A stretch of DNA of 64,000 bases from Ostreococcus lucimarinus (taxonomy: Eukaryota): NCBI GenBank assembly GCA_000092065.1, contig CP000601.1; one strand, written 5' to 3'. The number at the start of each line of letters is the position of its first letter. The first letter of the stretch is position 1. Position numbers and translations under genes: made by a program. The notes beneath the pieces are model-generated. The model had not been told where the DNA came from and ran no database searches. It worked only from the letters and a program-made list of their open reading frames with translations. Shown here in pieces: positions 809 to 16,920 of this stretch.

Positions 809-1036
809 CTCACAGCGATAAATTTTTTAAAGTACTATCCGTCACCCCGAAACGACGAAAGTCACAGTGTTGTCGTGTCGCTTTTCCATCACGGACAATC
901 GGGTGTGGGAAAAAGTAAGGTGTGATGTCGACACATCTCTTCCTGCGGGTTTCGATCCCGCGGCTTCCAGATCTCTATCGGAGCAGCCGTCATATTCGAC
1001 GGAGACTTTTTCCTAACAGTCTGACACTCTACCAGC
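809..1036. repeat. 228-bp dispersed/direct repeat, copy 1 (about 98.7% identical to 6744-6971)
   Basis: Aligned by eye to copy 2 with 3 mismatches and no indels. Contains a GCGGG-TTTCGAT-CCCGC hairpin and the 14-mer TGTCGACACATCTC. Confidence 0.9.
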
Positions 1037-1066
1037 AAAATTGTTTACAGAGATACCGCGACGAGA

Positions 1067-1443
1067 TTGAAGCAATACAAGGAACTCGATGGGCACCTGA
1101 TGAACGCCTCCGTGTGGGACGAGTATTTGACCCCAGAGATGCTCAGTCTGTATAATCCCGAAACAGACCAATTCGAGGAGCCCAAGCACTGGCTAAATGG
1201 GAAGCGTGTAGGAATTGCAATACTGGCGGATGATGTAAAATCGAGTCCGTTGCTGTCTAACAAAGCCTGGCGCAACCTGTGTATCAAATGCCGCCACCTT
1301 GGATCCTTCCCTGACAGTTCTCCACCAATAGGGTGCTCGATTTTCTGCGCGAGGTCAAGGACGCCGACGCGACGCTCCCAGACAAGTTGAAAGCCGAGGT
1401 ACCGACCATGCTTCAGAAAGGCGTGCGCGCGTATCTGGATTAA
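1067..1443 (+). CDS. hypothetical protein; reading frame changes near 1280-1320, possibly a very short 37-nt intron or a frameshift
   Basis: ORF 1067-1390 (first ATG near 1097) codes WDEYLTPEML...GKRVGIAILADDVKSSPLL. A second frame then continues with a protein-like C-terminus, VLDFLREVKDADATLPDKLKAEVPTMLQKGVRAYLD, to TAA 1441-1443. Removing gtatcaaatg...ccctgacag (GT..AG, 37 nt) joins the frames. No family recognised. Confidence 0.3.
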
Positions 1444-1666
1444 GCTTCACAAGTACCGTGGTGTGGGTAACATCTGGGACATCTTATCGAAATAATTCAT
1501 CGATGTTCGCCAGGAGATCGAGGAACAGGTGCCGTAAATTACGAAGAGCGTTTCGATTTACAATTTATATGATCCTCTAGCTTGAAAAATAGATCTCCGT
1601 CAGTGGCCGTGGGTGTGTTTGCCACAACTTGATTTGATAGTAATTGACATTTTTTTACCGCTCTCA

Positions 1667-3100
1667 TTAGTGCGCGTGTGCGTGTGAGTCTCCGCCACCG
1701 CCACCGCCTGTGCAATGCTTGTGGTTGAGGAGCACGAGACTGATGGCAACAACGCCGACGATGAAGGTGAGAATGCTCGTCGCGCGAAGACGAGGTGAAG
1801 TGGCGCTCACTGATACTCGGGGCATGCACTCTGCGGCGGCGATTTGCAGATAGACTCCAGCACCGAAGGCGAGCAGCAGTCCATGCCAGAAGTCGTTGTT
1901 ATTTCCCGATCCAACACTAATGAGGACGCCAAGAATGACACTCAAGCCGGAAACGAAGTTTAAAGTCAGCGTCGGCAACGGCGCGAGATCGCCCTGGAAG
2001 GGGTCTACGAGCACCAAGTAGTCAGCAAGCTCTTGAGCGATTTCGTGATAGACGGTCGCGGCGGTGATCGACCATCCCATGGTACTGTCGCAGTTCAGAA
2101 AGCCGAAGCCAATGAAAATACCATCCACTAGGTTGTGCATGAAATCTCCAAGAATGATACCACTTCGAACGCGATACTTGTGTGAGTTACAAGTACAAGT
2201 ATCACAGTCATCTTGAGCGCCTTTGACTGCAAGTTCCGCATCGGTTGTCTTCGCTGTATTTCCAAGAGTTGGGAACACGACAGAGATACCAAAGTCGATG
2301 AAGTAGGCCATGAGAAAGCCGAAGATAGAAGCGGAAGCCCACCATGCGGTCTGCTCTGCCTCATCCGAGCCAGCAGGTTTGATTAAATGCGTGGCTTCGT
2401 AGAACATCAGATAAAACGCAGCCGAAAGAAGTGCGCCGGCGGCAAACGAGTTAATTGTGCAACTCACAGTTTCAGGGTACGCTTTCTGCTTCTTAGCGAT
2501 ACTCGGGATGAGAAAGACCACACCAGAAAGTGTGACGATATTGACGATAATTGCCGCCCCAATGGCGTTGGCCCACGGTTTTGATTTCGATTCGCTCACG
2601 GTGGATGCTTCGGGAAGTGAAGCTTTTGGCACCACGTCATCTCCGTGGAGGTCCTTGAGATAGTGCGCGTCGCGCTCGAACTCGGTGGGAACGTGCTCAG
2701 CGAAGATTGAGATCGCGTCGATGCCAGTCGTATTAATCTTAAACGGCGTCGTGTGCCAGGTGTTGTCAAATTCAAGGTTGACACACCCACTATCAGGTGT
2801 CAAAACACTATCTCGTATCTTAGCCGTCGTACAAGCTCCCCCGATTGCGGTATCACCGCTATCCTCGCGGGCTTCGAGCTCGTCGTGTCCGGCGGCGATT
2901 TCGTCGTAGATGACCATTTTCATGGTATCGGCGGCGTACTTATCGGCCACCTTTTGCGCCTGCCACACGTATTCATTCTCTGGCGTCTCAAAGATTCCAG
3001 CCCATTCGAATGCGTGCGCGCCGGACGCGTGCGCGCCGCGCTGCGCGAGCGCGCTCGCGACGATCGCGATGCCACCACCGAGCGCGCTCGCGCAGCGCAT
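1667..3100 (-). CDS. ZIP-family (ZRT/IRT-like) metal transporter with large N-terminal ectodomain and signal peptide
   Basis: Translation carries the ZIP signature HNLVDGIFIGFGF and a second metal-binding helix HEIAQELADY, with multiple TM helices. The putative signal peptide MRCASALGGGIAIVASALA starts at the ATG near 3100; the ORF extends to 3196. Confidence 0.8.
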   Translation of the reverse strand: MRCASALGGGIAIVASALAQRGAHASGAHAFEWAGIFETPENEYVWQAQKVADKYAADTMKMVIYDEIAAGHDELEAREDSGDTAIGGACTTAKIRDSVLTPDSGCVNLEFDNTWHTTPFKINTTGIDAISIFAEHVPTEFERDAHYLKDLHGDDVVPKASLPEASTVSESKSKPWANAIGAAIIVNIVTLSGVVFLIPSIAKKQKAYPETVSCTINSFAAGALLSAAFYLMFYEATHLIKPAGSDEAEQTAWWASASIFGFLMAYFIDFGISVVFPTLGNTAKTTDAELAVKGAQDDCDTCTCNSHKYRVRSGIILGDFMHNLVDGIFIGFGFLNCDSTMGWSITAATVYHEIAQELADYLVLVDPFQGDLAPLPTLTLNFVSGLSVILGVLISVGSGNNNDFWHGLLLAFGAGVYLQIAAAECMPRVSVSATSPRLRATSILTFIVGVVAISLVLLNHKHCTGGGGGGDSHAHAH

Positions 3101-3325
3101 CGTTCGCCCTCGTCGTCGCTCGACCGTCCTCGCACCGCGTGCGCGTTCGCGCGGCGGCATCGTCGTCTTCGTGTTCTTCGTGTTTTCGTTCGTCATCGTT
3201 TCCGTCGTCGTCGTCGTCTTCGCCGGCGTCGGTAAGTGCGGCTGCGCACAAACTAAAGCGGCATACGAACCGAACCGGCGCGATGGAGGGCGGTCGTTTA
3301 TAAGTCACGACTCGCGAACGACAAA

Positions 3326-3590
3326 ATGTCGACATCCGCCGCAGTGTCGACACATCTCGGTGGTACTTGGATATGTCGAAATATGTCGACATGTGCGTCG
3401 AGACGTTTTTCGTATATAGATGCATCACGGGGTTCAATGCGTACACGCGCGTGGGTAAATATGTCGACATGCGTGTCGACATGTTTACGACGCGCGTCGC
3501 GACGCGATCCGTGATGGGCTTCGCGGGGCGTCGCGTACGACGATCCTCGACACGTGCACGACGCGAATCGTCGACACGTGCACGACGCGC
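3326..3590. promoter_or_regulatory. Palindrome-rich divergent intergenic region between the ZIP and COG0523 genes
   Basis: Five TGTCGACA palindromes (3327-3334, 3345-3352, 3384-3391, 3461-3468, 3474-3481) plus a half-site at 3373-3380. TATATA at 3413-3418. A 19-bp tandem duplicate TCGACACGTGCACGACGCG (3547-3565 and 3569-3587), each copy containing CACGTG. Confidence 0.4.
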
Positions 3591-3658
3591 GCGCATCGCC
3601 GCACTTCGCGACGCCTCTTCGGCTCGTTCGCGCGCGGAGACGTCGATCGCCGTACATC

Positions 3659-5299
3659 ATGTCCACACCCGCCGCAATCGCCAATCATAATCGATTGCCG
3701 GTGACAACGCTGTGCGGGTTCCTCGGCGCTGGGAAGACGACAACTCTGAAACGCGTGCTCGAAGCTAAGCGAGACGCGAACGGAAAGTTTCGGTGTGCCG
3801 TCGTCGTGAACGACGTCGCGGAGTTGAACATCGACAAAAAATTAATCGATGATTCCGCTTTGCTGCAGAGCGACGAGGTGGTTGCCATGCAGAACGGATG
3901 CGTGTGCTGTTCGTTGAGCGGAGACTTTGTAAAACAAATCGGGGACATGGCCAAGAGTGGCAATTTTGACTACATGATCGTAGAGGCATCAGGAGTGTCG
4001 GAACCGGCGGAAATTGCGAAACTCTTCGCAAATTGTGAGGACGATCACGATCATGAAGCTGCGCACGTTGATGAGCATGAACATTTGAGCACACTGGCGC
4101 GGCTGGATACGTGCGTGACGGTCATCGCTGCAGGTGACTTTCTCGACATGATTGATTCTTTCAGGGCGTCAGCTGTGAACAGGCAGTCTTACTCTCAATT
4201 GTTGGCTGAACAGATAGAGTACGCGAATGTCGTCGTATTGAACAAGGTCGACACTGTCGATGACGAACAACTCGCCGAGATTAAAGCGCAGATACAACTT
4301 CTCAATTCACGTGCTGATATTCTTGAAGCTGTGAACGGCGCGATCGACGTTACGCGAATCGTCAATACAAAACTTTACAAAGAGAATGACTTTGCTGGTT
4401 TCATAACATGGGAACAAGAGATAGAAGCAACATCTGTGAAGTCATGCTGCGCCGGCGCTAGGGACAAAGGTGAGTCTCCATGCTGTAAGCGAGCTCGCAT
4501 GAGAGAAACAGCCTTAAGCGAGGTCACGCTTGCACCAAGTTCTTCCCAAACACGTCACGATAGTCGGTTCGGTATTACGTCTTTCATTTACCGAGCCAGA
4601 AGACCTTTTCATCCCAAACGGTTTTTAGGCTCATTTGTCGAGCGCTTCTTCAGCTCCCTCGAGGCCGATGACCGTGATGAAGAAAAAGATGAAGAGACAC
4701 CAAGTGTAGACTGGAGTGCAGTGAAAGATATTCGAGCGCGACAAGAAGCGATGAAACTCAAGCGCCGTAAAAGGGAAGGTGAAATTGGTGTGCTGCTACG
4801 TTCGAAGGGTGTAACGTGGCTCAGTGATGCCCACGACTTGATAATTGTTTTCAGTCAGGCTGGTAATATTTACTCTCTCGAAGGATCAAGCCGATGGACC
4901 GCGCTGAATAAAAATGCTTGGGTCGGCTCACAGGGGATAAAGCAAGAACTTCGTAAAGACTGGGAGGGGCCTTATGGTGATCGCCGACAAGAACTGGTGT
5001 TCATTGGCAAGGATCTTAAATACGATGAAATTCAATCAACGTTGGACTCTTGCCTCTTGACCGACGAAGAATTCGAAATGGGTTCTGATGGCTGGAGAGC
5101 AGTCATGGGTGATGTCTTTCTAGACGAAGACGACGAAGACGAAGACGACGAAGTCGATGACGAAGACGACGAAGAAATCGACGAAGATTTGGTCGACGAC
5201 GAGGAGATCGAAGAGGAGATCAGGCCGCAACCCACTTCAAAGTCGAAGGCAAAACCAAAGGCAAAGTCGGCGCCCTCTCAAAACGACGGCTTAGTCTGA
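3659..5299 (+). CDS. COG0523 / CobW-type G3E GTPase metallochaperone (zinc-chaperone-like), with His-rich insert and poly-acidic tail
   Basis: P-loop LCGFLGAGKTT (in VTTLCGFLGAGKTTTLKRVL). CxCC metal motif GCVCCSL. His-rich stretch CEDDHDHEAAHVDEHEH. C-terminal DEDDEDEDDEVDDEDDEE tail. Start taken at MSTPAAIANHN (3659); the ORF itself is open from 3554. Confidence 0.85.
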   Translation: MSTPAAIANHNRLPVTTLCGFLGAGKTTTLKRVLEAKRDANGKFRCAVVVNDVAELNIDKKLIDDSALLQSDEVVAMQNGCVCCSLSGDFVKQIGDMAKSGNFDYMIVEASGVSEPAEIAKLFANCEDDHDHEAAHVDEHEHLSTLARLDTCVTVIAAGDFLDMIDSFRASAVNRQSYSQLLAEQIEYANVVVLNKVDTVDDEQLAEIKAQIQLLNSRADILEAVNGAIDVTRIVNTKLYKENDFAGFITWEQEIEATSVKSCCAGARDKGESPCCKRARMRETALSEVTLAPSSSQTRHDSRFGITSFIYRARRPFHPKRFLGSFVERFFSSLEADDRDEEKDEETPSVDWSAVKDIRARQEAMKLKRRKREGEIGVLLRSKGVTWLSDAHDLIIVFSQAGNIYSLEGSSRWTALNKNAWVGSQGIKQELRKDWEGPYGDRRQELVFIGKDLKYDEIQSTLDSCLLTDEEFEMGSDGWRAVMGDVFLDEDDEDEDDEVDDEDDEEIDEDLVDDEEIEEEIRPQPTSKSKAKPKAKSAPSQNDGLV

Positions 5300-5399
5300 T
5301 GTCTTTCTAGGTGACACTGAAGCGGAACAGGGTGGAGATGTGGACTCGGGCAACTCTTCCGACATGTAAGCTTGTCCTTTATAGTGAGCCCACACCGAT

Positions 5400-5696
5400 G
5401 TGAGCGCAAGTCATTTTTATGCACACAGTGACATCTTCATCGAATACCAGACGTGGTTGCCAGCGGCTGCGCGCGGTCAAGATAGCGCGACGAAGGTCGG
5501 CAATAAGCTCAAGGACTTCTTCAAGAAGGAAAAGGGCCACAGGGTCCCAATGGAAGAGGACCACCTGAGGCAAGGTAGAGACGAGAAGGGCGTCTATTGG
5601 GAAATTCACCGCGACGGGTGCTTCGAGTGGCTGAAGGACAATGGGTACACAGGGGAGACGGAGCTCGCGCCGGCGGTCGTCTGGTGCTCATACTAA
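5400..5696 (+). CDS. small hypothetical protein (98 aa)
   Basis: Open reading frame in the lower-GC island. The protein-like segment GVYWEIHRDGCFEWLKDNGYTGE has no recognisable family, so coding status is uncertain. Confidence 0.25.
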   Translation: MSASHFYAHSDIFIEYQTWLPAAARGQDSATKVGNKLKDFFKKEKGHRVPMEEDHLRQGRDEKGVYWEIHRDGCFEWLKDNGYTGETELAPAVVWCSY

Positions 5697-6130
5697 TTTT
5701 GTAATTCGTACATTTGCAATATGAAGACTCAACGAGACACCAAAAAGACCATGGTTTGGATCCTGACGAAATGACGAATGACGAACTGTTTTCATAAAGG
5801 TCCACACTGTTGCTTGTCATAGATCTAAAATAAAAATAAACATTAAAATATTTTAACATTTCGTCATTTTCATCATTGGTACACACAAAGTGTCACCGAA
5901 CGACGGGTTGACGAATTTGTGGACGACAAAACAAGTTCGTCATTTCGTCAGGTCTCGACGGATCACGAACGTCCAGGTGTGAAATCAGGCGGTTCGGTAT
6001 CTACATTCCGGACCTTGCAGCCCACGCAGCGATACGCGTACCTATGGTCTCTCGGATGTGACTGCAAACCGCAGGAGGAGGCACTTTTGGCAACAATATT
6101 TTCTTAGGGATAGATAGGTAACCAGGACAA

Positions 6131-6628
6131 ATGCCGTCGGGATGCGTGTACGAAATGTTTAGCGATAATGCGAAATGTAACAAAACGTACATCGGATCGA
6201 CGACGGGTTCGCTCAGAGCGCGCCTTGCCTCGCATAAATACGCACGACATCCAATCTTCACGTTTGGCGACGCGGACGTGAGAGTTCTCGAAAAGGACAT
6301 TCCAGCTGGAGAGCTCCATCAACGTAAAGGTGCCTACATGAGAGAGAAGCGTGACGGCTTATTCAACTCCCGAGCTGCTGGACGCAGCCAGAAACACGCG
6401 TGCCGCGAGAACGTGGACGAGAGTCCAGCCTACAGCAGAGCTCAATATACGCCGAAGCGGGACGGCGGCGATGGTAACTACAGACAACTCAATTATTACA
6501 AGCAGCACGCAAAAGGAATACTGCGCAAGACGTGCCTCAAGAATGCCCGAGCGCGCGGCACGCTGCCTTCGAAGCGCAGTCTCGACAAGTATCAATTTAC
6601 GGTAGATGAGTTACGCGGCTTGGCTTGA
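6131..6628 (+). CDS. GIY-YIG nuclease-domain protein (homing-endonuclease-like)
   Basis: N-terminus GCVYEMF-x9-KTYIGSTTGSLRARLASH fits the GIY-x(10-11)-YIG core with the following Arg and His/Glu. Lies in the lower-GC island, immediately upstream of repeat copy 2. Confidence 0.55.
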   Translation: MPSGCVYEMFSDNAKCNKTYIGSTTGSLRARLASHKYARHPIFTFGDADVRVLEKDIPAGELHQRKGAYMREKRDGLFNSRAAGRSQKHACRENVDESPAYSRAQYTPKRDGGDGNYRQLNYYKQHAKGILRKTCLKNARARGTLPSKRSLDKYQFTVDELRGLA

Positions 6629-6743
6629 CCACTTCACTCACACGATTGGTTCTGGAGAAATCTTACATGCGGTACATCAACGTCGATGTGCGGTTTTATC
6701 ATGTTGGGGTGCCCCAACTCAAAAAAAAAGTTTATTTTTATTA

Positions 6744-6971
6744 CTCATAGCGATAAATTTTTTAAAGTACTATCCGTCACCCCGAAACGACGAAAGTCAC
6801 AGTGTTGTCGTGTCGCTTTTCCATCACGGACAATCGGGTATGGGAAAAAGTAAGGTTTGATGTCGACACATCTCTTCCTGCGGGTTTCGATCCCGCGGCT
6901 TCCAGATCTCTATCGGAGCAGCCGTCATATTCGACGGAGACTTTTTCCTAACAGTCTGACACTCTACCAGC
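6744..6971. repeat. 228-bp direct repeat, copy 2
   Basis: Near-identical to 809-1036. Preceded by an A9 run and an AT-rich stretch (6700-6743). Confidence 0.9.
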
Positions 6972-7232
6972 TGAGTTAAGGAAGACTGTTTATGCATACG
7001 CACAACATCGCGGACATTCGACTGCCCATGCTCTTTATTTCGAGGCTTAACTCGGCGAGGTGGACGAATAATTGGTATTATACGTCGCTCGATGGTGGGT
7101 TTGCGACAGATCTTCGCGGCTTGACGCCGTCGATCCGCGATCGCGAATGTTACAGGTTGAGGGCTCGGGCGAGGACGTCGGTGGTTTTCGCGCGTTCGTT
7201 CGTTCGTCGTCACTCCGCGGTCGAATCCATCG

Positions 7233-10200
7233 GTGGATACGATGGATTCGACGCGGTGCGCGACGTGCCGGGCCGTCGTGCGCGGCGGCGCGGCGACGTG
7301 CGCGGAATGCGGGGCGCCGCAGGGCTACGATTCGGATTCGGACGCAACGATTCGCGTCGACGATGACGATGATGACGATGATTCTTCGCACTACGCCCGG
7401 GACGCCCGGGACTCGAGCGCTTCAGACGCCGACTCGAGCACTTCCGCCTCGTCCACGACTCGGCGTCGGCGGGAAGTCGAGTCGCGCGAGCGGGAGATGG
7501 AGGAATCGCCCGAGGCGTTGAAATTGTTGTACATGCTGAGTTTGTACACCGACGCGTCTCAGAAACAGTCGAAGTCGAAGTCTGCGGTTTCCAACAACAA
7601 CAACAACAAACGTTCTCCCTGGATTCGCGAGCTGCCGCTCCTGGTGCTCGTGTACGAGGGCATCGTGCGAAACGCGGTGTTCGATTACGATTACGCGCCA
7701 AAATCAGAAAAGATATTTGGAGCGTGTCCGAGGTATTTGAACGTCTCGGAAGAGGGACGAGACGATTTAGACGATTTGCGTGAGCTTGGTTTCATCACGG
7801 CGCTCAAGGTGACGAGCGAGACGTACGATCACTCGACGTTGTTGAAGATTTCCAAGAAGGGGAGCGAATTCTTGCAGAGGATGACGGCCTCGGGACGGTT
7901 CACGAGCGCGATGCGCCAGTCGGTAGATTCGTTGGTGCACGAAGCTGGTCACCTCCTCGAGGTGCGGTACGACCGCGAGTCCTCGGATTTTTTCCTCACC
8001 GTCCCCTCGATCGGGGTCCGCATCCGCTCCACCATCACGGACGTCGAAGACGTGCCGTACGTCTCGTCTCCGTACATCCCTCCGCACATGCTGAGCTCCG
8101 ATGCGTTCACACCGAACGCGTTGAACGGGCACAAAAAGGCAAAACGCGTGCTCGGCGGCGCCGTTCAAAGTAGTCGCGATATTCGCGACCCGCGCCTGAG
8201 TGAAAGTATCTTGCTCGACTCGGTGAAAATCATCGTCACCGAATACGTGCCGATGGGATCGAACGAAATGGTTTCTTTCTGTAGAAAACTCGGCACGGGA
8301 GACCGCGTCGCGGGCGGTATGTTCACCGCGGAAGCGAGCGCGACGCAGGACGAATTCAACATGGTGGTCGGGATCAACGCCGACAATAAAACCGAGCTAA
8401 AAGTCCTCGACGTCGACGAAACGCGATTCGTAAACGTCGAGGCAGACTTGCTCGCCACCGGGGCGCCCAAGAGTAACTTGGTGCAGCAGCAAATCGAGGT
8501 TTTCGGCATCAACTTTCGGGAAAACGGCGCCATCACTTACGGCATCGTCGTCAACGGCATCGCCGATCGAATTCGAAACGATATCAGCGTCGATTTACTC
8601 GCGCGCTTACTTTCCGACGTCCACGAAGACACGAGCTCGCTGGTGGGAAATTTATTTTCCGAGCGTCAGCGCTCCATGTTGAACATCACATACAAGGGCG
8701 AGCCGGACAATCGCGACAAGTTTACGTGCATCATCGCCGAGCGCGCGACGCCAAAACTGAAAGCCGCGGCGTACATGGATGGTGAAGATAACGAAAACGA
8801 GCTCAAGCAAGTCATCGGCGCGACGTTTTACGCGTACGACCTGAACGAACAAGAAGTCATCGTCTTTGGTTCACGCGGTGTCGTCGTCTTTGGTCCGCGC
8901 ACCGAACGTCATCACAAGCTTCTCGCGACATATTCAGCGTTCCAAGCTCGCTCGTTGTTCATCAAAAGTGTCTTCAGCAGTTGTTTCGCGCTGAACGACG
9001 AGTTGAAGAAGACGCGAGCGTTGATTGAAACCTATCAGATCGATCCGACGAACGTAACGCGCATTCGTTCGCGCCTCGCCGATCACACGACGACGGTGAC
9101 GATCTTGAGCGCCACTCAGCAGTTCGTGCTCGAGTCGCTCGAAAACGTCGACACGTCTCGTGAAAAGTTGAGCGCGGATATGAGCGACGGCGCGTCGCAA
9201 GTGTTGTACGACTTGTTTCAGTTGGAACCGTCGTGGAAACGCTTGCAAAGACGCGCCGTTGACTTGGAAAAAGTCATCGCGGCGTGCGTCAACGATCTCG
9301 AGTCTCTGCGAGAAATGAACGCCGTCATCGGCTCACGAAGAAAGCTCCGCATCAACGAGGCGATAGAAGGGACGACGAAAAACTTAGAGGATGCTTTCCG
9401 AGCGCAGGCGCGCAACAGCACCACGCTCGAGGTGACGCAAGTGATTTTGTCGGGGACGCTCGCGTTTGACATTCTCGATCGATTCACGGGGCAATACCTT
9501 TCGTTCACCGAGATTCGATGGGCCGTCGAAGCGGTGCAGCCGTACATAGTGAATGTTCCCGCGGTTTGGTTCATCTTGAACATGCTCGCGTGGTCGGCGT
9601 TGGGCGGTGGAATTGTTTATTTGATGCGCTACTTGGCCTACATGCATTGCAGCGTGGAGACGAAAAAGCTCACACTCAATAAACCCATTCATTTGTCGCG
9701 ATGGCGGCGATTCATCGCGACGCGCAACGTGGAGTCGACGGCTTTTAAGGAGGAGAACAACCGTCGCGTGGTGAAATACGGCTGGACCGAGCCCATCGAC
9801 GTCAAAAAGTGGAAAGGAACGCCCCCGAAGATTAACGTCACCATCGACGAGCGATACGGTTTCATCTTGCAAGCGATGATCATCATCAATAAGCGCACGT
9901 GTACGCTCTCCGGCGATGCGGTGTGGCGTCAATTTTGGAGCGATGTTTTCGTCGCTCGCAACGTCCACGATCAAAGTCGAGAGCTGTTTGACACCGACAC
10001 CGGCGACCGTTTGCAAACGGCCGAATATTCGTCAGAAGAAGAAGACGAGACTCGCCGCGACGTCACGGCCAAGATCATCGGCATCGACAACCGAAAGTCC
10101 ACGTTAAAGTGGCGCGATGGCAGGCAAATCCTCGCGCAAGACGACACCGACGACGACATCGATTCGGACGAGGAGGCGATCGCGAAGACGGGCGATTTGA

Positions 10201-10292
10201 CGTTTGAAGGCTTCGTCGCGTCCAGGTCGTTGAAACTCGCTCGAGAGGAAGAGAAGGCTAAAAAGAAACGAGCGGCAAGGATGGAAAAGTGA
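7233..10292 (+). CDS. large hypothetical protein (1019 aa): N-terminal zinc-ribbon, acidic tract, C-terminal TM segment
   Basis: Long ORF with host-like GC3 bias. CATCRAVVRGGAATCAECG (C-x2-C-x10-C-x2-C) at the N-terminus. D8 run. Hydrophobic helix AVWFILNMLAWSALGGGIVYLMRYLAY near residue 780. (AAC)6 repeat coding an Asn run. No family recognised. Confidence 0.55.
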   Translation: MDTMDSTRCATCRAVVRGGAATCAECGAPQGYDSDSDATIRVDDDDDDDDSSHYARDARDSSASDADSSTSASSTTRRRREVESREREMEESPEALKLLYMLSLYTDASQKQSKSKSAVSNNNNNKRSPWIRELPLLVLVYEGIVRNAVFDYDYAPKSEKIFGACPRYLNVSEEGRDDLDDLRELGFITALKVTSETYDHSTLLKISKKGSEFLQRMTASGRFTSAMRQSVDSLVHEAGHLLEVRYDRESSDFFLTVPSIGVRIRSTITDVEDVPYVSSPYIPPHMLSSDAFTPNALNGHKKAKRVLGGAVQSSRDIRDPRLSESILLDSVKIIVTEYVPMGSNEMVSFCRKLGTGDRVAGGMFTAEASATQDEFNMVVGINADNKTELKVLDVDETRFVNVEADLLATGAPKSNLVQQQIEVFGINFRENGAITYGIVVNGIADRIRNDISVDLLARLLSDVHEDTSSLVGNLFSERQRSMLNITYKGEPDNRDKFTCIIAERATPKLKAAAYMDGEDNENELKQVIGATFYAYDLNEQEVIVFGSRGVVVFGPRTERHHKLLATYSAFQARSLFIKSVFSSCFALNDELKKTRALIETYQIDPTNVTRIRSRLADHTTTVTILSATQQFVLESLENVDTSREKLSADMSDGASQVLYDLFQLEPSWKRLQRRAVDLEKVIAACVNDLESLREMNAVIGSRRKLRINEAIEGTTKNLEDAFRAQARNSTTLEVTQVILSGTLAFDILDRFTGQYLSFTEIRWAVEAVQPYIVNVPAVWFILNMLAWSALGGGIVYLMRYLAYMHCSVETKKLTLNKPIHLSRWRRFIATRNVESTAFKEENNRRVVKYGWTEPIDVKKWKGTPPKINVTIDERYGFILQAMIIINKRTCTLSGDAVWRQFWSDVFVARNVHDQSRELFDTDTGDRLQTAEYSSEEEDETRRDVTAKIIGIDNRKSTLKWRDGRQILAQDDTDDDIDSDEEAIAKTGDLTFEGFVASRSLKLAREEEKAKKKRAARMEK

Positions 10293-10457
10293 AAGCCGCG
10301 CGATCGCGGCCGCGGTGAAGCGAGGTAGGCCGCCCGCGTCGTCGTCGTCGTCCCTCCCGTCGGGTAGAATAGACAAATTGCTACGTCACACACAGAGAAC
10401 CGACCCAAACTTCACGTCGCGACGCGCGCGAGGCGCCCGACGTCGGCGTCGATCGCC

Positions 10458-11867
10458 ATGCGCGCCGCGTGCGTGCGCGTCGTCGTCCCGGACGTCCCGT
10501 CGTCGTCGTCGTCGTCGTCGGGCGCCGCCGTCCCGACCTGGCTCCCTCCCGGCACGGGATTCGTCTCAAAAAGCCTCAAACTCGACGTCTCTCGACCCTC
10601 CCGCGCGACGCAGTGCGAATTCTACGTCGTCGGTACCTCCCACGCGAGCGCGGCGGCGGCGGCAGACGTTCGACGGGTCATACGACGCGCGAAACCGCAG
10701 GCTGTGGTGCTCGAGCTCGACCAAGAGCGCGCCGACGCCCTCGTCGCGAGCTTCGTCGAACGCGCGCGCGTGATCGACGATTCCGAATACGGGAGCGATT
10801 TGTTGACCGGTATCATCGAATCAGAGCGCGAGGACGCGCTGACGGTGTACGGGGACGTGCGGGCGAGAGGTATAGGCGAGGCGTTGGCGGCTCGCGCGTT
10901 CGGGACGAACCCTTTCGCGATCGAACGGTGGAAAACGGTGTTGGCGTACGTGAAAAACGCGTGGGATGGTGGATCCGTGGGTGTTTCGAGCGATGGCGCG
11001 CTCGCCGCGGCGGACGTGGCGAGAGCTCTCATGGACGAGCCGAGAAATCTGACGCCGCTCGCGGGACCGGCGGCGGCGTTCGTCGCGGCGACGTTGGCGA
11101 GCTTGGCGATGCCGAACGGAGCGGAGAACGGTCTCGTGGACGCAGTCGGCGTGTTCCTTGCGCTTTTATTATTTTGCCCGCTCGTGGAGACGCTGTGGAT
11201 GGAAAGAGACGAGGTGTTGTGCGCCAACGCGTTGAACGCCGTCGACGTGTGCTCGGGCATCGCTCGAGGGCGGGTACGCCGCGTGCGATTTGGGTTTTCC
11301 ACCGATCCGTCGGCGACGAAGAAGAGCATGCAAACATTCACCCCGAGTGATGCTGGCGCGGTGCCGTGCTTCACGCTGAAACGTCCGCTGAAACGGGGCG
11401 AAACGAGAAGGCTGAACTTGTGGGAGCCGCGTTGGCTAGCGCTCATGGACTCGCTCGCGGAAGCGAATGGCGGATCCCTCGTGGGCGCCGAGCTCGGGTG
11501 TTTACTCGGGCGCGCGAGACATTACGTGAGTAGTTCTTGCTTTGAGATTCTAGGCGATGCGGCTCGACGTACTGGAACCGTGGCCGTTGAGGATTCCATG
11601 CGCCGCGCACGAGTGACGCGCGTGGTGGAGGGCGAGCGCCCGACGACAAAGGCTCGGAAATTGGAGGTTTGGATCGAAGGAATGGACGAGTGCGACGTGC
11701 ACGCGTTAGAGACACATCCGGCTGGGTATTTACTCGCGAGCGCGAGCGTCGAGGCGTCGCAAGCGCCGCGGATTGATGAAGACGACGACGAAGTCGTCAC
11801 GTGCGTCATCGTCACCGGCTTGGCGCACGCGAACGGCATCGTTCGCGGCATAGCCGAGGCGCAGTAG
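10458..11867 (+). CDS. TraB/PrgY-family protein fused to a LON-N (substrate-binding)-like C-terminal domain
   Basis: FYVVGTSHASAAAAADVRRVIRRAKPQAVVLELD matches the TraB-family N-terminal motif. C-terminus RRLNLWEPRWLALMDSL resembles the LON N-terminal domain motif (..FEPRY..). Confidence 0.55.
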   Translation: MRAACVRVVVPDVPSSSSSSSGAAVPTWLPPGTGFVSKSLKLDVSRPSRATQCEFYVVGTSHASAAAAADVRRVIRRAKPQAVVLELDQERADALVASFVERARVIDDSEYGSDLLTGIIESEREDALTVYGDVRARGIGEALAARAFGTNPFAIERWKTVLAYVKNAWDGGSVGVSSDGALAAADVARALMDEPRNLTPLAGPAAAFVAATLASLAMPNGAENGLVDAVGVFLALLLFCPLVETLWMERDEVLCANALNAVDVCSGIARGRVRRVRFGFSTDPSATKKSMQTFTPSDAGAVPCFTLKRPLKRGETRRLNLWEPRWLALMDSLAEANGGSLVGAELGCLLGRARHYVSSSCFEILGDAARRTGTVAVEDSMRRARVTRVVEGERPTTKARKLEVWIEGMDECDVHALETHPAGYLLASASVEASQAPRIDEDDDEVVTCVIVTGLAHANGIVRGIAEAQ

Positions 11868-11923
11868 AATATTGTAGTAGTATATCACACTTAGTTTATA
11901 TGTACATTCTCTGGTGTCGTGCC

Positions 11924-13933
11924 CTACGCCGCGGCGTTCTTCATGCCTAACTTCTCAACCTTCGCCGCGACGATTTCGGCGTCGAGCGGAGACGATAAAT
12001 TACGCACGACGCTCTCGCGATCATCCGGACCTTCATCACCGCTCGAGCTCGCGGGGCTGTCTAATTCAGGAGTGTGGCACGTCCCGGGATGACCTTCTTT
12101 GGGTGTCAACGCTGTGACGGAGTGTCGAACCTTGACCAAGCGCGAGTCACACAAAAAGTGCGTCCGACACAGCTTCAACGCCTTACCCACAGAGCTCAGT
12201 TCAGCGAACTCGATGAAGGCGATGGCTTGCTTCTCGCCCTTTTCGAACGCCTTGTACCAGAATAACGCCACCTCACCGCATTCCTCCTCAAACTTGTCGC
12301 GCACGAGCGTCGGTTCGATCTCAGGGTCGATATCCGTCACGTAAACCGTGCGATCCGCCTTTTCTTGCGCTACTGGATCCAATGGCCGTGTCAGGGCGCG
12401 CTTTTTGCTGTGCGAGATCTCAACTTTGAGCTGGCAATCATCCACTTCTTTGCCGTCTAAATCCAACGCGCGCTTTACCGCTTCGTTGTCCTCAAAGTCT
12501 ATGAAAGCGTACGGAAACTTACTCTTTGGGTTGGTGAGCAACTCGACGTGTCTCACTTGTCCACATTCGGAAAACATCGCCCTGAGACTCCCTGGAGATA
12601 AAGTTTTCGGAATGTTCCTCACGTAAACTTTGCACGGCGGCGACTCCGGCGTCGTCGGTTCATCACCGATGGTCCGGGTGGACGTCGAGTACGGGTAAGG
12701 GAACGGTGGCATGGTTGCGCGCTGCGATTCGGCAGACGAGTCGCCCGAAGTCGAAGCCGCGGATCCGTGATTCGTTCGTCGATGCAAACGGAGCGGCGTC
12801 TTTGACGCACTCACGCGAATCATGCGGTTTCCAAGCTGTTCACCCGTCAAATGCAGCGCGGTTCCCACGCTTTCGAGGTCGACGAACTCTACGAAGGCTA
12901 CATTCGCCACGGCGTTGTTCTTCACTTGCAAATGCAAGCGGTTGACGGGGCCGGCGCGGTCCTCGAAAAGTAACTTCAACGCGTGCGAGTCCACGGTCTT
13001 GTCGACGTTTGCGACGTAAATTGTCCTCGCGCACGATTCAACCTCTCGTTCATTCTGCGGTAGCAGTAACGGGTTCACTGGGATCACCGCGGTGTCGCTC
13101 TTCTTCACCATGATGTTTTTCCCGTGGAGCGGCGTCTTGTCCAACAATAACGCCCGATCCACCGCCTCGGCGCACTCAAACGCCACAAAGGCGTAGCTAA
13201 ACTTGTGTGTGTTCGCATCACCGCACATGCGACAGTCTATGATGCGGCCGCACGAGGCGAAAACATCCGCTAATTCGCGTTCGCTCACGCTCGCCGGCAC
13301 ATCCTTGACGAAGACGGTGTACGGCACCGCCTTTTCGTTCGCACGTCCATCGCCGAAATATCGTCCACTGGCGCCGTAGAAGCGGCCACCGACGATACCA
13401 CCGTTCACGTGCACACCATTACGCCACTGCTCGCCGCGACCTCGGCCGCCACGACCTCCCACTCGACCGCCGCGACCTCCCGGCGATCGCCTGCCGTATC
13501 CGCGACCGCCAGGGACAAAGCCCGCGCCCATGTAAGGCGGCATCACGTACCCGTAGTGGTCGTAATGATGCGCGTTATGCATGGCTGCGTAATACTCGTG
13601 CTGCGCCGCCGTCATCGCCGCGTATGCGTACTCACCGTACGCCCCCGGCGGCGCCGGCGCGCCCATCATCATCATCGGCGGCGGCACCCCGTACGCGCCC
13701 GCCGGCGCGTACGAACCGGCCGCCATCGCGTGCGGATCGTACCCCCCGTACCCCATATCCGCCACCCCAGGCGGTGACATACCCTCCCCACCCGGCATTA
13801 AGTTCACCGGCACCACCACCGGCACCGCGAACTCGTGCTGAGACACCACCTGCAACGGCGTCCCCGCCGCCGGCACCACGCCGCCGTTCGCCATCGCCGC
13901 TCGATACCACTCCATGTACGACGGCGTCATCAT
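11924..13933 (-). CDS. RNA-binding protein with four RRM domains and an N-terminal RGG/Gly-rich region
   Basis: Four RNP-type modules, e.g. VFVKDVPASVSERELADVF...YAFVAFECAEAV, TIYVANVDKTV, KVYVRNIPKTL...YAFIDFEDNEAV, TVYVTDIDPEI...AIAFIEFAE. RGG/GRGG repeats. Start set at MMTPSYMEW (13933); the ORF continues as an Arg-rich, probably non-coding extension to 14476. Confidence 0.65.
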   Translation of the reverse strand: MMTPSYMEWYRAAMANGGVVPAAGTPLQVVSQHEFAVPVVVPVNLMPGGEGMSPPGVADMGYGGYDPHAMAAGSYAPAGAYGVPPPMMMMGAPAPPGAYGEYAYAAMTAAQHEYYAAMHNAHHYDHYGYVMPPYMGAGFVPGGRGYGRRSPGGRGGRVGGRGGRGRGEQWRNGVHVNGGIVGGRFYGASGRYFGDGRANEKAVPYTVFVKDVPASVSERELADVFASCGRIIDCRMCGDANTHKFSYAFVAFECAEAVDRALLLDKTPLHGKNIMVKKSDTAVIPVNPLLLPQNEREVESCARTIYVANVDKTVDSHALKLLFEDRAGPVNRLHLQVKNNAVANVAFVEFVDLESVGTALHLTGEQLGNRMIRVSASKTPLRLHRRTNHGSAASTSGDSSAESQRATMPPFPYPYSTSTRTIGDEPTTPESPPCKVYVRNIPKTLSPGSLRAMFSECGQVRHVELLTNPKSKFPYAFIDFEDNEAVKRALDLDGKEVDDCQLKVEISHSKKRALTRPLDPVAQEKADRTVYVTDIDPEIEPTLVRDKFEEECGEVALFWYKAFEKGEKQAIAFIEFAELSSVGKALKLCRTHFLCDSRLVKVRHSVTALTPKEGHPGTCHTPELDSPASSSGDEGPDDRESVVRNLSSPLDAEIVAAKVEKLGMKNAAA

Positions 13934-14499
13934 CGGTCGTTCGCTCGACTCGTACGACGCGCTCTGCGACGTTAAAAATCCACGTTTCGCGCCTTCGTCA
14001 GTCTCTCGCGCGCCTTCACCGCGCCCCGATCGCCCTCGCGTCTTCGCGTCCTCGCGTTTAAAAAATCTTTCAAAATCACCAGCCGTTTGAAAGATCGCCC
14101 ATCTCCCGAATGTTTCCCTCCCGTCGCCATCGCATCGCCCGTTCGCGCGTCGCGCGCACCCTCGTCGGCTCTCGAGCGGTTTTCCCATCGTTCCCGTTCG
14201 CCTCGCGCGCGTCCTCGCGCGTCGTCGACGCGCGCGCCGTTCGATTCGCATTCGCTTCATTTTCATTTTTCGCATTCGCGCGCGTGACGGCGACGCCGTC
14301 GTCTCCCGCGTCGTCGTCGCCTCGCGTCGCGCGTCTCGGCGCGGGCGCGCGCGGGGACGGGCGATCGACGTCGCGCGGCGTCGGCGGCGACATCGCGCGT
14401 CTCCCGCGTCCTCGAGCGTCGCGTCGTGCCGACGCGCGCGCGCCGTCTCCGGGCGCGCGTGGCGCCCAAAGGTCACGTCGCGCGTCGAAAGTTCATGGC

Positions 14500-14611
14500 G
14501 GTTTCGCCCCGGTGAATACGACTTTGCGCGCGTCGTTCGCGTTTATGTATACATTCGGCACGCGTCGCGATCGCGGTTTCGCCCCGGTGAATACGACTTT
14601 GCGCGCGTCGT
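14500..14611. repeat. Two copies of a 37-bp motif GGTTTCGCCCCGGTGAATACGACTTTGCGCGCGTCGT in the divergent intergenic region
   Basis: Identical 37-mers at 14500-14536 and 14575-14611, flanking the palindrome ATGTATACAT (14545-14554). Lies between the 5' ends of the RRM gene (-) and the Cdc20 gene (+). Confidence 0.6.
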
Positions 14612-14840
14612 CTGCGTGTCGTGACTTAGTATCACTGTCGTCGGAAGGCGTCACACACGGATTACGACGACCGCGCGACGCGACCGCGCGACGACCGACG
14701 CACCGCGACGCGCGTCGCGCGCGACGACGACCGCTCGACCGCGCCGATCGCGAGCGGACGCGCGCTTTAACGCCGAGACGCCGAGACGCGAACCGAAAAC
14801 GCGCGCGCCGACGTCCCACGCGCGAGAAAACGGACGGGAA

Positions 14841-16631
14841 TTGCGTCTCGGGAGCGCCGGGACGACGACGCTGATTCGCGGCGACGGCGCGCGCGGGATG
14901 GCGAACGGGGGGCATCGCGGCGTGGACGTGGCGCGGCGATTGATTTTCGAGGACTCGACGCGACGCGGGACGGGCGCGCGCGATGGGAGCGCGCCGGGGA
15001 CGCCGGAGAGGGAGGGGCGGGCGAGCGCGGGACGCGGCGCGAGCGCGGGACGGGCGAACGCGGGATACAGCGATCGGTACGTGCCGTCGAGGAGCGCGAG
15101 CGCGGGATTTCGGGGTGATTTTAGTATGCTGGAGGCGTGCGCGAGCGTCGGGGTCGGGGCGACGGGAGGGGGTAGGGGTGAAGAGATCGGCGGCGCGAGC
15201 GGCGGCGGCGGCGGACGAATCGGTCGGGACGGACGCGGCGACGCCGATCGGGGACGGGAGGGGGACGCGAATCGCGATGCTGATAGCGCGGGCGCGCACA
15301 GGGGTGATGGTGGTTCGGCGCGAGCGCACGAGCGCGAGGATACGAGCGCGGCGTACGGGGCGTTGTTGCGAAGCGAGTTGCTCGGAGACGTGTGTCCGCC
15401 CGAGGCGTACGGCGTGACGCCGCCGGCGACGCCGAGCGCGGCGAGGTACCGACCGCGGACGCCGGCGACGCCGATCGATGGATCGTCGTACTCGTACTCC
15501 ACTCCCGGAAGGAACTTGTTCAAATTTCGCGACGATGGCTCGTTCGGGACGATCGCTCGAGGCGAATCGCCGTACGCGTTGAATCCAGTCGGCGACGGCG
15601 ACGGACCGCTCGGCATGACGCTTTTATCGCCGCGCCGCCGCGCGCCGCGAAAGATCGCGCGTAGTCCGTTCAAAGTACTCGACGCGCCGGCGTTGCAGGA
15701 CGATTTCTACCTCAACCTCGTCGATTGGAGTTCGAGCAACGTGTTAGCCGTCGGTTTGGGAACGTGCGTCTACCTGTGGAGCGCGTGCACTAGCAAGGTG
15801 ACCAAGCTGTGTGAGCTCGCTCCTAACGATTCCGTCGCCTCTGTGGCGTGGACGCAGCGTGGGACGTATTTGGGCGTCGGCACGAACAGCGGCGAGGTGC
15901 AGATATGGGACGTGGCCAAGTGCAAAAAGACGCGAGCGATGCTCGGGCACCGCAGTCGCGCCGGGACGTTGGCGTGGAACTCGCACACGCTCTCGAGCGG
16001 GAGTCGCGATCGCGCCATCTTGAATCGCGACATTCGATCACCGAGCGATTACTCTAGCAAGCTTCTCGGGCATAAGAGCGAGGTGTGCGGATTGAAGTGG
16101 TCTTACGACGACCAACAGCTCGCGAGCGGCGGCAACGACAATCAACTCTTCGTGTGGAATTCGCACTCGACGTCACCAATCTTGCGATGCAGCGAGCACA
16201 CCGCCGCGGTCAAGGCCATCGCGTGGTCTCCACATCAACACGGCTTACTCGCCAGCGGCGGCGGTACCGCCGACCGATGCATTCGGTTTTGGAACACCGT
16301 CACCAACACGCCGTTGCAGTGCGTCGACACCGGTTCGCAGGTGTGCAACTTGGTTTGGAGCAAGAACGTGAACGAGATCGTCAGCACGCACGGCTACAGC
16401 CAAAATCAAATCGTCGTCTGGCGTTATCCGAGTATGTCCAAGCTCACCACGCTCACGGGCCACACCCTCCGCGTGCTCTTTCTCGCCATTTCTCCCGACG
16501 GCCAAACCATCGTCACCGGCGCCGGCGACGAGACGTTGCGCTTTTGGAACGTCTTCCCCGGCATGAAGTCCCCCGTCTCGGGCGCCGGCGACAACACCGT
16601 CAGCACGCTCGCGCGCACGAGCATTCGGTGA
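14841..16631 (+). CDS. CDC20: Cdc20/Fizzy-family APC/C co-activator (WD40)
   Basis: C-box SDRYVPSRS. WD40 propeller with Cdc20-typical FYLNLVDWSSSNVLAVGLGTCVYLW ... GHRSRAGTLAWN ... RFWNVF. The low-complexity N-terminus leaves the exact start uncertain. Confidence 0.8.
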   Translation: MRLGSAGTTTLIRGDGARGMANGGHRGVDVARRLIFEDSTRRGTGARDGSAPGTPEREGRASAGRGASAGRANAGYSDRYVPSRSASAGFRGDFSMLEACASVGVGATGGGRGEEIGGASGGGGGRIGRDGRGDADRGREGDANRDADSAGAHRGDGGSARAHEREDTSAAYGALLRSELLGDVCPPEAYGVTPPATPSAARYRPRTPATPIDGSSYSYSTPGRNLFKFRDDGSFGTIARGESPYALNPVGDGDGPLGMTLLSPRRRAPRKIARSPFKVLDAPALQDDFYLNLVDWSSSNVLAVGLGTCVYLWSACTSKVTKLCELAPNDSVASVAWTQRGTYLGVGTNSGEVQIWDVAKCKKTRAMLGHRSRAGTLAWNSHTLSSGSRDRAILNRDIRSPSDYSSKLLGHKSEVCGLKWSYDDQQLASGGNDNQLFVWNSHSTSPILRCSEHTAAVKAIAWSPHQHGLLASGGGTADRCIRFWNTVTNTPLQCVDTGSQVCNLVWSKNVNEIVSTHGYSQNQIVVWRYPSMSKLTTLTGHTLRVLFLAISPDGQTIVTGAGDETLRFWNVFPGMKSPVSGAGDNTVSTLARTSIR

Positions 16632-16920
16632 TTCACCGCATTCTTTCTTTCGATACGAATCCGTCTGTACCGCAAACTTTTTTCATTCATTCGTCGCCGT
16701 TGTAACTCGTACCACTCGACGCGTTCGTCCCGTCGCCCGCACACCGCGCCGCCCTTCCGCGCCGCGTCGACCGTCCACCAGCGCGCGCGTCGGCGCACCG
16801 TTCGCCGCCCATCCCGCGCGCGTCGCCCTCGCCTCGCCGTCCGCGCGCGCGTCCGCGCGTCCCGAAGCCGCCGCGCGGCGTCCCGAAGCCGCCGCGCGCG
16901 CGCGCCTCGCCTCGCCTCCG

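Follow-up and report, generated by a model that had tools for sequence, protein, structure and literature searches.

The locus and its two-gene viral module

The DNA examined here (the window), a stretch of 64,000 nucleotides from contig CP000601.1 of Ostreococcus lucimarinus (GenBank assembly GCA_000092065.1), carries at positions 6131–6628 an open reading frame (ORF) for a protein of 165 amino acids (aa) with the motifs GCVYEMF...KTYIGSTTGSLRARLASH. An original prediction, made from the letters alone, had described it as a GIY-YIG endonuclease-like gene set in eukaryotic nuclear DNA of lower GC content, next to a repeat, and this description of the setting was confirmed. The ORF runs from ATG to stop, its stop at 6628 lies 116 bp before the second copy of a direct repeat, and the GC content is 0.48–0.50 across 4001–7000, as compared with 0.58–0.61 in the flanking kilobases and mostly 0.55–0.75 in the rest of the window. 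For the ORF itself the GC content is 0.54 and that of third codon positions (GC3) 0.60, versus a GC3 of 0.73–0.80 for neighbouring host genes.

The encoded protein is identical to a ‘predicted protein’ of O. lucimarinus CCE9901 that RefSeq lists twice (XP_001421138.1, XP_001422817.1); this species has a third paralogue as well (XP_001421474.1), and the locus recurs with identical neighbours, at 99–100% identity, in contigs from Tara Oceans and other marine metagenomes. These two observations confirm the nuclear context of the gene in O. lucimarinus. Across ten same-locus metagenome contigs the nucleotide identity of the ORF was 100% or 99.8%; frameshifted copies are found as well (L001, L004). 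Homologues numbered 32 at E ≤ 0.01, the full-length ones being 165–193 aa long and 49–96% identical, and a profile search over 1.84 billion representatives retrieved 1039 family relatives at E ≤ 1e-3. UniRef labels the protein as GIY-YIG domain-containing, and 898 members belong to its 90%-identity cluster. Because of the full-length homologues, and of a ratio of non-synonymous to synonymous substitution rates (dN/dS) of 0.20–0.34 among copies, the ORF is a real gene of the GIY-YIG fold and not a chance reading frame.

The gene does not stand by itself. By blastn, window positions 5425–6749 are approximately 94–95% identical to metagenome contigs L003, L004, L011 and L027, and the intact module found elsewhere has two genes, one for a 733-aa PrimPol/DUF5906 primase-helicase and, after it, the 165-aa GIY-YIG gene. 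Full-length relatives of the former carry the Pfam domains Prim-Pol and DUF5906 (a D5-type superfamily 3 helicase, S3H). In the window, a 98-aa ORF at 5400–5696 matches the end of the 733-aa protein of L011 with 86 of 90 identities (BLASTP). From the nucleotide match and this protein match it follows that the window holds the 3′ 1.3 kb of the two-gene module, with the primase-helicase reduced to 90 codons. Intact modules reside in chromosome-size (0.29–1.24 Mb) Ostreococcus-type contigs from long-read reef metagenomes, several of them 10–20 kb from a contig end and with varying upstream contexts.

The AT-rich interval between the two genes contains a 17-nucleotide (nt) perfect inverted repeat (5762–5778 and 5936–5952; CCTGACGAAATGACGAA / TTCGTCATTTCGTCAGG) and GACGAA-type iterons around an AT-rich core. 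Segment 5760–5953 occurs twice in L002 (326–519 and 3813–4006), flanking the primase-helicase gene; region 5762–5952 is a candidate viral origin or promoter. On the other side of the ORF, homology to the other module copies ends at 6749, the repeat boundary. The dispersed 3′ module found there was present in 24 of the 34 metagenome loci bearing its 18-mer, most of which run into a common sequence absent from the window, and in some wild contigs (among loci L019–L052) it follows a gene that is not GIY-YIG. Upstream of the ORF, at 5829–5844, the T-rich part of this module recurs as a 16-nt inverted copy (AATAAAAATAAACATT). Three different right contexts had at first suggested that a mobile element of 3.4 kb and two genes truly ends on the right at 6749; this was dropped, since shared sequence follows in most wild copies and the left ends are offset from one another.

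Fold, catalytic residues and the C-terminal module

The assignment to the GIY-YIG family was only partly upheld by the hidden Markov model. Pfam PF01541 matched the ORF product with 16.7 bits, which is under the gathering score of 22.6 (E = 0.0093; residues 4–37 only), but it matched 13 of the 15 aligned family members at E < 0.1 (best 6.5e-07), and the relative P0090 passes at 26.1 bits. Scans of the ORF against PHROGs and NCBIfam gave no match, and searches of PDB sequences with the ORF and with the family profile returned nothing relevant; only fold comparison succeeded. Foldseek against predicted viral structures produced 50 matches at E ≤ 1e-3, mostly to GIY-YIG proteins encoded by phages, by giant viruses and by the mavirus virophage. 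Residues 1–95 correspond to the catalytic fold of I-TevI, a three-stranded sheet with helices that bears the GIY and YIG motifs.

Alignment of the ORF product with I-TevI by hhalign pairs Tyr7 with Tyr6, Tyr20 with Tyr17, Arg31 with Arg27, His35 with His31 and His40 with His40, and matches the family motif ‘R-E-G-x-(Y/F)-I’ to ‘R-E75-N-F-W-I’ of I-TevI. Asn79 is invariant in 22 sequences; its equivalence to N90 was taken from motif order and lies outside the hhalign alignment. The metal-binding Glu (I-TevI E75) is replaced by Lys66 in the ORF product and in every relative that is 87% or more identical to it (‘QRKG’ or ‘QRKS’), as read from a profile-based alignment. Thus, the motifs of the catalytic core are present, as had been predicted, but the core is incomplete. 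Glu at this position is kept in 16 of the 22 family members compared and was lost independently in three other lineages; P0015 is an example of a relative with Glu. A sister lineage (P0143, P0155, P0180 and P0138) has lost the catalytic Glu, Arg and His and retains the C-terminal module described below. In P0143 the ORF continues directly into a PrimPol N-terminus, GIY-YIG thus preceding primase in an order opposite to that in the window.

In a comparison of five intact copies from the Lys66 clade, the GIY-YIG gene had a dN/dS of 0.20–0.34, and the corresponding value for the primase-helicase was 0.12. Nine pairs with dS near 0.1 showed 8.5–16 non-synonymous versus 10–13.5 synonymous changes. 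It should be noted that the pairs are paralogous or mobile copies, by which selection at the window locus itself is not demonstrated. With these ratios the clade has evolved under constraint.

The C-terminal half of the protein is basic (pI 9.9) and Tyr-rich (8.6%), as noted before, and has no Pfam match, so that the statement that no DNA-binding domain is recognisable there holds for Pfam. Yet this part contains a conserved module (residues approximately 117–165; YRQL..Y, ILR, NA, P..S..KY.(F/I)T..E) with helices predicted by modelling at 121–142, 148–154 and 158–162. Since the C-terminal approximately 50 aa are present as three tandem copies in P0117, they constitute an independent, separately repeatable module. 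We infer that it is the DNA-binding part of the protein, although it matches no known DNA-binding family. In a protein of 4605 aa (P0104), 11 distinct stretches are matched by the family profile.

Viral relatives and the repeat-bounded island

Relatives of the module were found in virus-like contigs of 13–17 kb and in an integrated element, together with genes for a double-jelly-roll capsid, a penton-like protein and a packaging ATPase. Contig L002 encodes the primase-helicase (approximately 94% nucleotide identity), a GIY-YIG homologue (60% aa identity), a 446-aa protein and the ATPase. The latter is a 308-aa P-loop protein in L017, with the Walker A motif SGKT, whose homologues adjoin capsid genes in L002, L057 and the IMG/VR contigs and which we read as a packaging ATPase. 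In L057 the ATPase, the penton-like gene and the capsid follow in the same order and are accompanied by a DUF5906 helicase; this integrated copy, with a frameshifted capsid gene, is situated at the end of a 317-kb contig beside the host genes Xpo1 and CwfJ. The ATPase-penton-capsid block is furthermore shared by seven viral contigs of 7–23 kb found in IMG/VR by capsid alignment, one of which (L066) adds a GIY-YIG family member and a helicase. The lineage therefore possesses a double-jelly-roll major capsid protein, a packaging ATPase and a primase-helicase, while the window itself has fragments only.

Because the capsid, penton-like, ATPase and helicase genes share contigs with relatives of the module, the parent element is a polinton-like virus (PLV). 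This parentage agrees with the one or two PLV or virophage capsid genes reported in Ostreococcus genomes (PMC10120064). The earlier suggestion of a remnant of a viral insertion was correct in so far as the remains are PLV debris; the giant-virus, organellar or Penelope-like sources also put forward were not borne out, the source being a small double-jelly-roll PLV. No reverse transcriptase was present in the neighbouring ORFs of the window or of related loci, and neither the succession of a GIY-YIG domain and a RING/PHD zinc finger nor the single-copy syntenic orthology of SLX1 was observed. Pattern scans of IMG/VR with the GIY-YIG alignment, the primase-helicase alignment and the 18-mer of the 3′ module found nothing. 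Pfam detected no capsid, integrase or protease in the neighbouring viral ORFs, and no integrase among the scanned proteins of L002, L017 and L018, all of them partial contigs.

The position of the GIY-YIG gene varies among these viruses. It is downstream of the primase-helicase in the window, L011 and L027, comes after a 524-aa gene in L002, and in L012, L014 and L015 forms a solo cassette of 572–588 bp that is divergent from the ATPase N-terminus and has boundaries equivalent to window positions 6073–6660. In L017, with a primase-helicase of 81% identity, the interval between that gene and the ATPase lacks it; L018 and L057 do not have it either. Stand-alone GIY-YIG genes are widespread in PLVs and virophages and have been interpreted as homing endonuclease genes (PMC12220804, PMC3671162). 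Since related viruses either have the gene in one of three neighbourhoods or do not have it, its distribution resembles that of a free-standing homing-endonuclease gene.

The ORF is the last gene of an island of 5.9 kb between two direct repeats (Table 1), which we conclude to be a decayed and rearranged PLV insertion.

Table 1. Coordinates of the features at and around the GIY-YIG ORF (strand: +, −, or. where none applies)
Feature	Start	End	Strand	Remarks
Direct repeat copy 1	809	1036	−	3′ 100 nt of tRNA-Asn (intron included) plus 128 nt downstream
Putative PLV P-loop packaging ATPase, fragment	1046	1351	+	aa 113–212 of 308, including Walker B
Second DUF5906-type viral helicase, pseudogene fragment	1336	1531	+	Frameshift and stop codons
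ZIP-family metal transporter gene	1667	3196	−	Pfam PF02535, E = 1.2e-21; GC3 0.62
CobW/COG0523-type GTPase gene	3554	5299	+	Pfam cobW, E = 6e-41; CobW_C, E = 1.5e-18; GC3 0.54
Viral PrimPol/DUF5906 primase-helicase, remnant	5425	5696	+	Last 90 codons (aa 644–733); remaining gene deleted
AT-rich viral intergenic region	5697	6130	.	GC 0.43; 92.9% identical to L011 intergenic region
GIY-YIG ORF	6131	6628	+	ATG-to-stop, 165 aa
ORF 3′ flank, dispersed viral intergenic module	6629	6749	.	GGGGTGCCCC palindrome, then A and T runs (6684–6749)
Direct repeat copy 2	6744	6971	−	Overlaps tRNA-Asn gene
tRNA-Asn gene (anticodon GUU)	6872	6985	−	42-nt insert after position 37; 3′ 100 nt within repeat copy 2

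At the left end of the island, the ATPase fragment begins 10 nt after repeat copy 1 (tblastn against the L017 protein: 64% identity, E = 7e-46). The helicase pseudogene matches aa 349–414 of the L057 helicase in two frames with in-frame stops (tblastn, 57–59%, E = 1e-10 and 4e-10), and is 71.5% identical to L057 by blastn. Between these fragments and the module remnant are two genes of cellular type. The ZIP gene is non-viral by homology and has an atypically low GC3, and a 79.5% aa-identical ZIP gene is located directly upstream of the intact primase-helicase in L012, L014 and L015. In GC3 both the ZIP and the CobW gene resemble viral genes (0.56–0.61), unlike the flanking host genes. Outside the repeats, a JmjC-like gene (12–698) lies to the left of the island and a 1019-aa gene (7233–10292) to its right.

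Along with these genes, several further observations were made. Genes for ZIP, CobW/COG0523 and, elsewhere, GTP cyclohydrolase II recur beside the viral module (L011–L016, at about 5300–17200), and such neighbourhoods often lie 10–20 kb from the ends of chromosome-size Ostreococcus-type contigs. The CobW protein of the window is only 27% identical to that of L011, and these loci are therefore no simple duplicates of each other. The divergent ZIP-CobW intergenic region has a 30-nt direct repeat (AAATATGTCGACATG...) at 3379–3408 and 3457–3486; it overlaps a chance-level Rfam match (BTH_s1; 24 bits, gathering score 74) and may serve both zinc genes as a common regulatory element. Outside the island, and unrelated to the ORF, a 48-nt direct repeat of 94% identity is present in GC-rich DNA at 14495–14542 and 14570–14617, with a spacing of 75 nt.

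The bounding repeats are 228 bp long and 99% identical, with three mismatches. The tRNA-Asn gene at the right end was recognised by Rfam RF00005 with 49 bits (gathering score 29; E = 1.8e-08), over the full length (1–71) and with the CUGUUA anticodon loop aligned. ARAGORN reported no tRNA in the window, presumably owing to the intron, and none was called in repeat copy 1, where the first 14 nt of the tRNA are missing. Foreign DNA bounded by direct repeats with the 3′ part of a tRNA gene is the arrangement of a tRNA-targeted island; an island integrase and an empty-site allele in the population, which belong to such islands, were not found. No integrase ORF exists within 1037–6743, and a single exact-match scan of JGI metagenomes at one spacing (left flank, approximately 232 nt, right flank) detected no empty site, which is weak evidence; intron-like inserts, where present, would lengthen the spacing. 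No tRNA, tRNA-Asn fragment or repeat was seen near any other module copy or the integrated virus L057. A virus-borne origin of the tRNA-Asn was considered and is disfavoured, neither the tRNA nor the repeat being present in any other element locus. Most likely, the 228-bp repeats mark an old integration or a later recombination event.

In wild contigs the tRNA-like repeat carries two polymorphic inserts absent from the window, one of 87 nt in the T-arm region and one of 100 nt in the D-loop, at sites corresponding to window positions 6881/6882 and 6969/6970 (946/947 and 1034/1035 in copy 1). They were seen in L010 (2723–2809), L008 (2839–2925), L005 (1807–1906) and L054 (3384–3469), and alleles with none, one or both exist. 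In the direction of the tRNA each insert has the sequence GTAAGT...CTGAC...(pyrimidine-rich)...CAG, and thus the look of a spliceosomal intron. The D-loop insert would split the A-box of the tRNA, and Rfam calls no tRNA in insert-bearing contigs.

Sequence L056 (1–3941), from a seawater metagenome, joins the GIY-YIG gene, one repeat copy, the ATPase fragment and the ZIP gene (compare window 5918–6881 and 946–3374). The junction could be that expected of an excised circle or a tandem copy, and could equally be a mis-join by the assembler. As assemblers can mis-join across repeats longer than the k-mer, L056 was dropped as a proof of a circular form.

Origin, function and comparison with known systems

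We consider it likely that the ORF is the GIY-YIG gene of an endogenous, Ostreococcus-associated PLV lineage that survives in a decayed provirus. In active viruses the protein would act as a free-standing endonuclease of the homing type: through its C-terminal module it would bind to a target site within the genome of a related virus that lacks the gene, the N-terminal domain would then cut this target, and recombinational repair would copy the GIY-YIG gene into the cut genome. In the clade fixed in Ostreococcus, canonical cleavage has probably been lost or altered, because Lys66 replaces the metal-binding Glu (judged from the alignment), whereas DNA binding may persist. We infer that the window copy is a relic and does not move the island. 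Nothing indicates the role of mobility or maintenance gene for which it had been proposed: its primase-helicase partner is cut down to 90 codons, no other module copy is next to a tRNA or this repeat, and the Glu has become Lys.

Several points weigh against this origin and function. The parent virus was recognised in metagenome contigs and not in an isolate. The C-terminal module fits no known DNA-binding family, a DUF1153 match in P0117, below threshold for the stretch concerned, being the only one. Lys at the site of the catalytic Glu opposes an active endonuclease, and a dN/dS below 1 then needs another function. The linkage of primase-helicase and GIY-YIG in several lineages, with the reverse order in P0143, could mean a role in replication in place of selfish homing. 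The left repeat junction cuts through the ATPase gene and thus is not a clean attachment (att) site; since, in addition, there is no integrase, and other copies have neither tRNA nor repeat, the evidence opposes a clean att duplication. Finally, the ZIP and CobW genes between two patches of viral debris are not explained by a simple decayed provirus.

The replication role just mentioned, in which the GIY-YIG protein as accessory nuclease of the primase-helicase would nick or process the origin or intermediates at the inverted-repeat/iteron region, we regard as unlikely. It would account for the adjacency of both genes in modules of the window type, for their position within 2 kb of each other in one IMG/VR viral contig, for P0143, where the GIY-YIG member directly precedes or is fused to the PrimPol N-terminus, and for the inverted-repeat/iteron region between the genes and its duplication around the primase-helicase of L002. 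However, viruses with a close primase-helicase do without the gene (L017, L018 and L057), the cassette of L012 stands away from any primase-helicase, and several lineages have dispensed with the catalytic Glu, Arg and His, which would be unexpected in an essential replication enzyme. In Penelope-like elements the GIY-YIG domain cuts a host target to start integration. A comparable integration endonuclease, cutting the tRNA-Asn gene here and making the ORF the former mobility gene of the island, would suit the place of the ORF as last gene before repeat copy 2 with its tRNA 3′ part, the likeness of the layout to bacterial tRNA-targeted islands and the lack of a Pfam integrase among the scanned proteins of L002, L017 and L018; that scan, however, extended over no more than a portion of each virus. 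The other module copies and L057 have neither a tRNA nor a tRNA-Asn fragment nearby, the 3′ flank runs into common viral sequence in most wild contigs, which makes 6749 a truncation point and not a genome end, the left junction cuts the ATPase gene and the catalytic Glu is missing. Such a role thus seems highly unlikely.

Domestication of the gene is very unlikely as well. Under this explanation Ostreococcus would have retained the Lys66 variant as a DNA-binding protein without nuclease activity, for instance in regulation or in defence against prasinoviruses or PLVs. The ORF is indeed intact although its neighbour is truncated, and the near-identity over ten same-locus contigs, the low dN/dS within the clade and the size of the 90%-identity cluster point in the same direction; but the dN/dS values come from paralogous or mobile copies and may reflect the active life of the element, copy number and position vary between strains, and frameshifted copies occur (L001, L004). 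Viral debris at both ends, the island-wide low GC3, the recurrence of ZIP beside the module and the L056 junction would also allow a more elaborate explanation, to which we give little credence: a PLV-derived integrative element with captured zinc-homeostasis genes (ZIP and COG0523/CobW), still recombining as a circle or tandem through the repeats, which would be a eukaryotic counterpart of bacterial tRNA-linked islands with the Lys66 protein as a nuclease-dead DNA-binding factor. That the gene was inserted by a giant virus (prasinovirus), or that it is an ordinary SLX1-type repair nuclease of the host, is scarcely tenable in view of the small double-jelly-roll relatives and of the missing SLX1 features.

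With the ORF assigned to a decayed PLV provirus, a ‘predicted protein’ of which the O. lucimarinus reference genome has three copies or more, with its 898-member cluster in marine metagenomes, is now tied to a specific lineage of small capsid-encoding viruses. The genes form a new, well-delimited subfamily of stand-alone PLV/virophage GIY-YIG genes, found within a known type of relic, the endogenous PLV. Current concepts are unchanged by this, as stand-alone GIY-YIG genes of PLVs and PLV relics in protists were already documented. Unusual here are the replacement of Glu by Lys under constraint, the direct repeats containing part of a tRNA gene and the recurring association with zinc genes. Within the family, GIY-YIG proteins that keep the catalytic Glu and others that lack it, each of them under constraint, form a natural series, which could reveal the role of viral stand-alone nucleases after cutting ceases. 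Ostreococcus and the prasinoviruses are a tractable model system. For this reason, and because endogenous PLVs are being discussed as defences against giant viruses (PMC12220804), the module of primase-helicase and GIY-YIG, in intact and decayed copies, is usable as a marker for tracing these elements in natural populations.

Among known systems, the likeness to SLX1 lies in the GIY-YIG fold in a eukaryotic nuclear genome. From the free-standing GIY-YIG homing genes of phages (I-TevI, T4 seg) the clade of the ORF differs in having Lys for the metal-binding Glu, in a C-terminal module that, by sequence, is not the NUMOD, zinc-finger or helix-turn-helix (HTH) type of I-TevI, and in its replicon, a eukaryotic PLV or a nuclear chromosome; cleavage and homing, moreover, are putative here. 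As in bacterial tRNA-targeted islands, direct repeats include the 3′ part of a tRNA gene, the tRNA being intact on one side and partial on the opposite side, and DNA of foreign composition with mobile-element genes lies between them. In contrast to these islands, the host is a eukaryote, there is no integrase, the 228-nt repeat reaches 128 nt beyond the tRNA, one junction cuts a viral gene and no empty-site allele was found (single exact-match scan). Closer to hand are the endogenous PLVs and virophages of protists (Bellas et al. 2023, PMC10120064), which likewise are low-GC insertions with fragments of PLV hallmark genes; the window differs from them in that it holds debris without a capsid gene, on either side of two zinc genes of cellular type and between 228-bp direct repeats that include part of a tRNA gene, whereas a study of cryptophyte PLVs saw no tRNA genes near integration sites (PMC12220804). 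With regard to characterised virophage proteins, the similarity is at the level of the fold (HMMER against PDB gave none, and a direct sequence comparison was not run), and in place of the fused C2H2 zinc ribbon of MV06 and OLV1 the ORF product has its own distinct, conserved C-terminal module. The mavirus GIY-YIG protein was nevertheless among its Foldseek matches, and the gene shares its setting with mavirus MV06, OLV1, OLV24 and the cryptophyte PLV genes: a stand-alone GIY-YIG gene in a small double-jelly-roll virus with a primase-S3H helicase and a packaging ATPase (PMC3671162, PMC12220804).

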